This document shows, piece by piece, positions 4,056 to 5,617 of a stretch of 64,000 nucleotides of DNA. The position numbers and the translations under genes were made by a program. Within the stretch, counting starts at the first letter, position 1. Each line of letters starts with the position of its first letter. The DNA is from Eledone cirrhosa (Eukaryota). A model generated the notes under the pieces. It was not told where the DNA came from. It was given only the letters and a program-made list of their open reading frames with translations, and made no database searches. The DNA lies in NCBI GenBank assembly GCA_964016885.1, contig OZ024743.1, forward strand, positions 312,418,001 to 312,482,000, written 5' to 3'.

Positions 4056-4381
4056 TATTAATATAAGCAGAACAAGCAAAATTCAACCAATTTTTTAAAA
4101 TAAATTAAAAAATATAATTTAAATATTTACCTATCCAGGGGTACCTAGTACCCACGGGCTTACTAACTTCTTCTATCACCCTCCATTTGTTGAGAACAAT
4201 CACGTTGATTCTATTTAGCTGCTATTTTTAGTAACGAGATAGACAACACGTCTATGTTTTTCCCGCTTTAACCTCGGGTAGTTCACGTACAGGTCATTTT
4301 TCGGCCTTTTGGATCTGTGCTAGCTGGCAGATAACAATATATTTTATCGTTCCTGGGTCTTTAGCCCTAGGAAAGGAAAAT

Positions 4382-4463
4382 GCTTCTCTGATGAGCCTTG
4401 ATTTTCCATTAGAAATCCATTGGGTCTCTGGTGTTTTACAAGGCGAAACCGATCGGTAAGAGC
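4382..4463 (+). ncRNA. Type I hammerhead ribozyme, copy 1
   Basis: TTCT CTGATGA GCCTTG..38 nt..CAAGGC GAAA CCGATCGG TA AGAG; predicted cleavage after GUA at 4458. Confidence 0.9.
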
Positions 4464-4862
4464 CATATGAATAGGTAAATATTTAAATTATATTTTTTAA
4501 TTTATTTTAAAAAATTGGTTGAATTTTGCTTGTTCTGCTTATATTAATATTATAGTTCTGGTATGTCAAATTGATACCATAGAACAACCTTAAATCATAG
4601 ACAACCTATGTATTTCCAGGGGTACCTAGTACCCACGGGCTTACTAACTTCTTCTATCACCCTCCATTTGTTGAGAACAATCACGTTGATTCTATTTAGC
4701 TGCTATTTTTAGTAACGAGATAGACAACACGTCTATGTTTTTCCCGCTTTAACCTCGGGTAGTTCACGTACAGGTCATTTTTCGGCCTTTTGGATCTGTG
4801 CTAGCTGGCAGATAACAATATATTTTATCGTTCCTGGGTCTTTAGCCCTAGGAAAGGAAAAT

Positions 4863-4944
4863 GCTTCTCTGATGAGCCTTGATTTTCCATTAGAAATCCA
4901 TTGGGTCTCTGGTGTTTTACAAGGCGAAACCGATCGGTAAGAGC
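4863..4944 (+). ncRNA. Type I hammerhead ribozyme, copy 2
   Basis: Same motif, offset +481. Confidence 0.9.
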
Positions 4945-5343
4945 CATATGAATAGGTAAATATTTAAATTATATTTTTTAATTTATTTTAAAAAATTGGT
5001 TGAATTTTGCTTGTTCTGCTTATATTAATATTATAGTTCTGGTATGTCAAATTGATACCATAGAACAACCTTAAATCATAGACAACCTATGTATTTCCAG
5101 GGGTACCTAGTACCCACGGGCTTACTAACTTCTTCTATCACCCTCCATTTGTTGAGAACAATCACGTTGATTCTATTTAGCTGCTATTTTTAGTAACGAG
5201 ATAGACAACACGTCTATGTTTTTCCCGCTTTAACCTCGGGTAGTTCACGTACAGGTCATTTTTCGGCCTTTTGGATCTGTGCTAGCTGGCAGATAACAAT
5301 ATATTTTATCGTTCCTGGGTCTTTAGCCCTAGGAAAGGAAAAT

Positions 5344-5425
5344 GCTTCTCTGATGAGCCTTGATTTTCCATTAGAAATCCATTGGGTCTCTGGTGTTTTA
5401 CAAGGCGAAACCGATCGGTAAGAGC
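5344..5425 (+). ncRNA. Type I hammerhead ribozyme, copy 3
   Basis: Same motif, offset +962. Confidence 0.9.
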
Positions 5426-5617
5426 CATATGAATAGGTAAATATTTAAATTATATTTTTTAATTTATTTTAAAAAATTGGTTGAATTTTGCTTGTTCTGC
5501 TTATATTAATATTATAGTTCTGGTATGTCAAATTGATACCATAGAACAACCTTAAATCATAGACAACCTATGTATTTCCAGGGGTACCTAGTACCCACGG
5601 GCTTACTAACTTCTTCT

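Follow-up and report, generated by a model that had tools for sequence, protein, structure and literature searches.

The window, that is, the whole 64,000-nt stretch of Eledone cirrhosa DNA analysed here, contains a young tandem insertion of hammerhead-bearing units that has no ORF, ends at two sites against (TA)n tracts and was likely moved by the RT/GIY-YIG protein of a Penelope-like element (PLE) copying a circular monomer, a reading to which we assign a probability of roughly two in three. Judged by its footprint, the retrozyme inserts like a PLE; it is not itself a PLE because it has no ORF. As a class the element is ordinary: retrozymes have been described in a mollusc as well as in many vertebrates, and a link to PLEs has already been proposed; the new addition is the footprint evidence. 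The available text of the relevant reports (PMC7229834, PMC8557442, PMC11167929, bioRxiv 10.64898/2026.07.22.740005) leaves two questions open, by what route animal retrozymes re-enter DNA and how the tails and inverted ends of PLEs arise. A short, young and nearly unmutated family leaves a footprint that can be counted, with two start sites that are each used once per inverted insertion, and this footprint names exact RNA positions, namely sites A and B, the tail hairpin and the predicted cut at 4459.

The array lies on the plus strand at window positions 4134-5619 and consists of 3 x 481 nt plus 43 nt, with 100% identity at period 481 and zero mismatches between 4134-5138 and 4615-5619, which bears out the claim of the initial annotation that three identical 481-bp monomers are present. 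Its description of the monomers as non-coding holds as well, the longest stop-free frame in a unit dimer being 74 aa; the GC content of the unit is 36%. The extent that had been given for the tandem array, 4056-5617, stands from position 4134 onwards, but not for 4056-4134, which is not tandem but an exact 79-nt reverse complement of 4471-4549, an inverted arm that had been missed. This left arm (4056-4134, minus strand) is an exact copy of unit positions 338-416 and starts at fixed site A beside the TA tract, and the array (4134-5619) ends at fixed site B into (TA)n, the insertion as a whole being a 79-nt A arm joined to a 1,486-nt B arm. An A-start arm of this kind is present in most inverted insertions of the family. 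The TA/TATG microsatellite tract that encloses the array runs from about 1852 to 9405, with its left part (1852-4058) and right part (5617-9405) as the insertion target, and a second PLE-type insertion lies within the right part at 6318-6691. Assembly stutter may have affected the exact copy number at this locus; unit-specific differences are present in other arrays of the family. A tRNA search found no tRNA gene in the window, and no host gene was found among the 20 window ORFs scanned. Elsewhere in the window, positions 12765-28139 hold a duplication of about 10 kb in which long, degenerate arrays of the CTAACA type occur together with internal repeats of 900 bp and the one ORF scanned gave no convincing Pfam match, and LINE-type fragments are found at 29562-30740 (minus strand; RVT_1 with a PHD finger), 37718-39409 (plus strand; RVT_1 and zf-RVT) and 60753-61286 (minus strand; a lone PHD finger).

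Each of the three units carries a type I hammerhead motif on the plus strand, at 4380-4466 (predicted cut 4458/4459), 4861-4947 (4939/4940) and 5342-5428 (5420/5421), and the identification rests on sequence and covariation. The core CTGATGA starts at 4388, 4869 and 5350; in copy 1 it spans 4388-4394 and is followed by a 6-bp stem II (4395-4400/4439-4444), GAAA at 4445-4448, a palindromic stem III (ACCGATCGGT, 4448-4457) and GTA at 4456-4458, and stem I is made of seven pairs around a single C-C mismatch. Both the CUGAUGA/GAAA/GUA hammerhead in every monomer and the 10-nt palindromic stem III of the initial annotation were thus recovered. The cut in copy 1 would leave a new 5' end at 4459, and the hammerhead positions predict two cut-to-cut monomers on the plus strand, 4459-4939 and 4940-5420, each a candidate circle. 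The "unusually long 38-nt loop II", in contrast, is really a hairpin: the 38 nt within stem II fold as an 11-bp inner hairpin that covaries across families, and helix II is therefore extended rather than long-looped. Rfam returned no match at the gathering score and three chance matches at E<=10, no hammerhead among them; given the atypical length of helix II, we do not take this as evidence against the motif.

For the covariation analysis, 11 representatives were picked from six unit types. The hammerhead pairing was retained in 91% of the cells, and two-sided changes were found in 10 of 26 pairs, compared with 0-3 in slid-partner controls, counts that are uncorrected for relatedness. The self-complementarity of stem III has been kept through two-sided changes in units that are 62-92% identical; one base is missing from the middle of the stem in the 459-nt family, and two 488-type variants have a central mismatch. 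Stem III is predicted to be far more stable as a duplex (-16.6 kcal/mol) than as a hairpin (-0.9 kcal/mol), which fits the dimeric mode of hammerhead cleavage described in PMC4209133. It should be noted that the first stem II pair, G-C in the 481-nt family, is non-standard in six of the 11 representatives and that the unconstrained fold of the ribozyme region is not a hammerhead, two features that speak against strong ribozyme activity.

The predicted 481-nt circle has an MFE of -115.1 kcal/mol (z -2.76), and none of 60 shuffles was as low. A circle more structured than its shuffles could also be expected of a viroid-like RNA replicon that multiplies from RNA to RNA and is only occasionally written into DNA, and one report mentions RNA-RNA replication as a possible route for retrozymes (PMC7229834, available text). 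This explanation is nevertheless highly improbable, since a minus-strand hammerhead was absent from all six units under a strict filter (which also missed the plus-strand motif in two of the six), since the variants form a stepwise genomic lineage, and since every copy has a retrotransposition footprint. The word "replicon", which the initial annotation had used, thus finds no support in its RNA-to-RNA sense.

A search for the unit in the 2,996-Mb assembly yielded at least 157 matches (40 scored of 2,234 candidates) on many contigs, and the reversed-pattern controls yielded none. The recurrence of the unit at many loci on many contigs rules out a single-locus tandem duplication and, together with the coding-free unit, upholds the view of a young, dispersed, ORF-less tandem element with a type I hammerhead that belongs to the non-LTR retrozyme kind. 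For the young family, 63 loci were collected, with arms from 28 to 3,563 nt that range from monomers to multimers and show no LTR layout, and within young arrays, which reach 7.4 units, differences are confined to 0-1 sites. Searches with variant patterns uncovered sister families, all without an ORF, whose units of 485, 485, 524, 488 and 459 nt are 92, 80, 76, 81 and 62% identical to the 481-nt unit, respectively, and are homologous to it over the entire length, which argues that the closed unit is old. A conserved hairpin just past site A (4555-4585, plus strand; a predicted fold, aligned in five units) is a candidate binding site for the PLE protein. A degenerate pattern of this tail hairpin gave 1,732 exact matches and a reversed control none. 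From the first 100 of these matches listed, 40 were taken as a third sample, weighted to types not yet seen, and brought the mapped loci to 192 (63 young, 89 older with overlapping duplicates dropped, and these 40).

The size of this collection bears on whether the unit is merely the pseudo-LTR of an unsampled ORF-bearing PLE, so that the arrays would be truncated PLE ends expanded by unequal exchange. Fixed tail ends, inversions and 5' truncation are indeed PLE features, an origin of this kind with local amplification is proposed for Xenopus families by Li et al. (bioRxiv 10.64898/2026.07.22.740005, available text), and the 192 loci examined compare with 1,732 matches of the tail-hairpin pattern alone. 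However, none of the 192 loci runs into an ORF, read-through beyond site B always enters the unit, and homology to the sister units, at 62-92%, extends along the full unit, which makes the closed unit old; in addition, arrays of up to 7.4 units with 0-1 differences leave little time for stepwise expansion. Three PLE proteins compared by tblastn with 152 + 40 loci, the L122 rows being those displayed for the 40, matched pieces at seven of them; in L160 and L246, which were inspected, the PLE pieces are set off from the arrays by microsatellite, as in L122, and those at L210, L220, L224, L270 and L331 were judged from coordinates alone. A comparison of the unit with 50 GIY-YIG loci (BLAST and a five-unit HMM) found only the sister array that adjoins the PLE in L122; these 50 come from 150 listed of 10,596 candidates and are thus a small sample. 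The ORF-bearing parent against which the initial annotation had warned was accordingly found at 0 of 192 unit loci and 0 of 50 GIY-YIG loci, and we regard a pseudo-LTR origin of the arrays as improbable.

Contigs of unspecified kind from four of five listed runs served as a source of variant leads; their depth, raised 10- to 30-fold over the terminal part, had at first suggested a large autonomous partner, and the follow-up gave only ORF-less sister families. Another hammerhead-bearing family that targets (TA)n is nested beside other insertions (L132:4381-4560, L126:264-430, L141 and L066) and has a long helix II, a palindromic stem III and inverted arms; an architectural likeness to the hammerhead element in L126, L132 and L141 was dropped because that element is a separate nested insertion.

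The footprint behind the preferred reading, mobilisation by a PLE protein, is seen at the 3' ends of the arms. Site A lies at unit position ~417 (window ~4549/4550), with arm 3' ends clustered at unit 409-421, and site B at unit 43 (window ~4657), with 3' ends clustered at unit 38-44; the tail of about 107 nt between them (4550-4657, plus strand) repeats at +481 and +962. At the 63 young loci, 98 of 104 arms end at A or B (raw table, L235 excluded), and the same two end sites are used in the sister families. Arrays with different permutation points had been anticipated, and this is correct for the 5' ends, which vary, but not for the 3' ends, which are fixed at the two sites. TA runs abut the A and B ends in the flanks displayed, with the exception of the A arm of L053, the flanks of L180 and of one L240 end being absent for the relevant segment; the insertion flanks are (TA)n, where a target-site duplication cannot be delimited. 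Truncation at the 5' end, an inverted 5' arm and a target bias towards (TA)n are all present.

In 90 of the 98 inverted insertions, one arm ends at A and the other at B, and in the remaining eight one end is unassignable, these being short fold-backs or divergent alignments; A+A or B+B insertions were not found among the 98. The A+B pairing was seen in 38 of 40 cases in the young family, 40 of 41 in the older families and 12 of 17 in the third sample, and, as L234/L235 and L150/L151 look like local duplicates, about 88 of the A+B cases are independent. At the junctions between the two arms, the overlap is 0-5 nt in 30 of 39. We found no published report of such a two-site footprint in a retrozyme in the literature covered, which was largely that outside subscription journals. 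Nine of the 104 young arms stop at unit 13-19 (window 4146-4152), on the 3' side of a small GC-rich hairpin and irrespective of arm length, and these stops may mark an RT pause on structured RNA.

The properties of PLEs and their proteins offer a ready parallel. According to the available text of Frangieh et al., both strands of an AT-rich target are nicked and extended by a PLE protein that is predicted to be a dimer, and the tail is delimited by two internal RNA positions at which RT starts (PMC11167929). Craig et al. describe a tail on one end of PLEs and (TA)n as a target (PMC8557442), and Arkhipova et al. a tail at one end of inverted insertions (PMC3846280), again within the accessible parts of these reports. 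Elements with GIY-YIG are abundant in the octopus genome studied here (10,596 candidates, of which 150 were scored), and one of them, the RT and GIY-YIG element in L122, has two end sites of its own, about 65 nt apart. The A+B pairing recurs in eight of nine short inverted copies of this element and in four long ones (L126, L130, L133 and L140). The second insertion in the TA tract of the window (6318-6691) is an inverted insertion of the L122 type, with the B end on the left and the A end on the right, and is 94-97% identical to the 3' end of the L122 element.

The arms of short derivatives of the L122 element also have a sharp 5' limit, as 20 of 46 stop within an 8-nt window (L122 positions 6160-6167), about 70 nt upstream of the L122 hammerhead cut, which suggests a defined RNA 5' end; it may belong to a short PLE derivative of the SINE-like kind or reflect initiation at an internal position. 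In the hammerhead-like motif of this element (L122:6200-6240; window 6580-6615), what we take to be the usual C3-G8 pair is apparently replaced by U3 and A8; by eye, the motif has a 4-bp stem II and a palindromic stem III. L123:1355-5130 represents a different PLE family, whose left arm is inverted and whose long ORF is followed at once by the 3' end of the element; a piece of this family that is 96% identical lies tail-to-tail with a retrozyme array in L160, with microsatellite between them.

Whether the copied RNA was a circle or a line can be approached through the predicted cleavage bond. This bond is crossed by 74 of 98 young arms, 25 of which cross it two to seven times, and 114 of 119 arrivals at the bond pass it. 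Five arms stop at unit 324-328, where the local density predicts 2.4 (p about 0.1). As evidence for a fossil stop at the predicted cut, these 5 of 119 young arrivals are not significant, and none of the older-family arms ends exactly there. Junctions are scattered at 15 loci. The read-through, set against the sharp 8-nt stop of the L122-type arms, which has the appearance of a real template end, argues that the template was mostly continuous across the site. A single case, L180 (G000:C1:229431051-229431628), has an A arm whose end coincides with unit 326, the predicted cleavage site, and which folds back over 30 nt, as if RT had run off a cleaved 5' end and primed itself, and some templates may have been cleaved linear RNA.

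The homogeneity of the arrays gives a second line of evidence. For 37 variants that were seen in at least three loci, 174 calls were fixed in all covering copies and 25 were mosaic, with many of the mosaic calls in an AT-rich stretch or at CpG. Ten rare variants were also fixed across an array; five of them were recounted, in 2-4 of 2-4 copies, and one more was not recountable. At each of three loci with the window's own unit-12 variant, every copy has it (8 of 8, 4 of 4 and 2 of 2), and the lineage variants form a stepwise genomic lineage. Array-wide fixation of variants implies that a monomer is re-multimerised in each generation, which indirectly supports repeated copying of one monomer, most simply explained by a circle. 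Homogeneous arrays would also result if RT jumped repeatedly on a single linear monomer or if arrays were quickly homogenised in DNA.

The same PLE mobilisation and start sites could have acted on a linear template, either an uncleaved multimer or a cleaved monomer re-read by template jumping; no covalent circle would then be required, and ribozyme activity may be low or depend on protein. The one PLE studied in vitro, from an anole, mainly used uncleaved RNA as its template, and mutating the ribozyme left insertion normal (PMC11167929, available text). The few arms that stop at or near the predicted cut site would also fit a linear template, as would the non-standard first stem II pair in six of 11 representatives and the free fold of the ribozyme region, which contains no hammerhead. 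However, a linear multimer can only shorten with every round and would pass on mosaics, yet new variants have become fixed, in up to 8 of 8 copies; core and palindrome of the ribozyme persist in units that are as little as 62% identical; and circles are reported for the retrozymes of coral, mussel and axolotl (PMC7229834, available text). A linear template is therefore considered unlikely, and copying of a circular monomer remains the preferred reading.

On this preferred reading, insertion would proceed in four steps. The tandem transcript would first cleave itself after GUA, probably as a double hammerhead formed via the palindromic stem III, and the 481-nt monomer would be ligated into a circle. 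A PLE protein, likely a dimer positioned near the tail hairpin, would then nick both strands of the (TA)n tract, as PLE biochemistry suggests. Of the two nicks, one would prime cDNA synthesis at site B and one at site A, which lies about 107 nt further upstream; these are the two positions at which the footprint places the 3' ends. Each cDNA would run a variable distance, up to the 7.4 units seen in the arrays, through the ribozyme site, and the two cDNAs would be joined with the little or no overlap seen at the junctions, giving an inverted A arm and a B arm; a single successful priming would give a plain 5'-truncated array that ends at A or B. Head-to-head inversions in PLEs have been explained by self-priming on an antisense template (PMC3846280, available text), but the strict A+B pairing makes two coordinated primings the better fit. 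We tentatively propose, at close to even odds, that one PLE dimer primes both target strands on one circular RNA, with each subunit at its own site and rolling around the circle. If this is true, coordinated twin priming would explain both the tails and the head-to-head inversions of PLEs, the footprint itself would show that animal retrozyme circles are substrates of PLEs, and the lineage would have evolved for a long time as a closed non-coding unit without a sequence tie to its helper.

The element can be compared with several known systems. Non-LTR retrozymes were defined by Cervera and de la Pena in 2020, who reported circles in coral, mussel and axolotl, proposed that RT takes place on the circle and regarded PLEs as strong candidate helpers (PMC7229834, available text, as for the following comparisons with this report). 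The octopus element shows each of the sequence-level features of non-LTR retrozymes that were assessable: like the metazoan retrozymes it occurs as dispersed non-coding tandems with low GC (36%, where below about 45-50% is typical) and one type I hammerhead per unit, and like the axolotl retrozyme it has a palindromic stem III that suggests dimeric cleavage. It differs in the length of its unit, 481 nt compared with about 220-400 nt in the three species, in its extended helix II and in its strict (TA)n targeting, and two fixed 3' ends with inverted arms are not among the features described for those retrozymes. For them, cleavage and circles have been demonstrated; for the present element, both are predictions.

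Li, Clavereau and Pollet (2026) derive retrozymes from PLEs on the basis of co-occurrence and pLTR homology, mainly in vertebrates, with unit consensus lengths of 51-972 bp and cleavage in one of nine retrozyme dimers tested (bioRxiv 10.64898/2026.07.22.740005, available text). The element described here is of the same class, with the same proposed helper, and its 481 nt fall within their range, so that it is not exceptionally large for an animal retrozyme, as had been supposed. In contrast to their approach, the link made here is via the insertion footprint, and no pLTR homologue was found in the 50 GIY-YIG loci.

Closest in its mode of insertion are the EN+ PLEs, as far as the available text of the reports describes them (PMC8557442, PMC3846280, PMC11167929). 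In both, insertions are truncated at the 5' end, carry an inverted 5' arm and form partial tandems; the tail is confined to one end, (TA)n is favoured as a target, and a type I hammerhead lies a short distance ahead of the sites where RT starts. Unlike the EN+ PLEs, the element has no ORF and so lacks the RT/GIY-YIG coding sequence of that class, its tail of about 107 nt compares with 30-40 bp (PMC8557442), and its arrays reach 7.4 complete units. The non-autonomous PLEs of Chlamys resemble an autonomous family at their 3' end and are mostly without canonical hammerheads (PMC8557442, available text), whereas here a hammerhead is present and no parent was found among the 50 GIY-YIG loci. Craig et al. 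describe ORF-less PLE dependents in Chlamys, such as MRC1, that form multicopy head-to-tail insertions (PMC8557442, available text), and in being ORF-less, multicopy and arranged head-to-tail the octopus element resembles MRC1.
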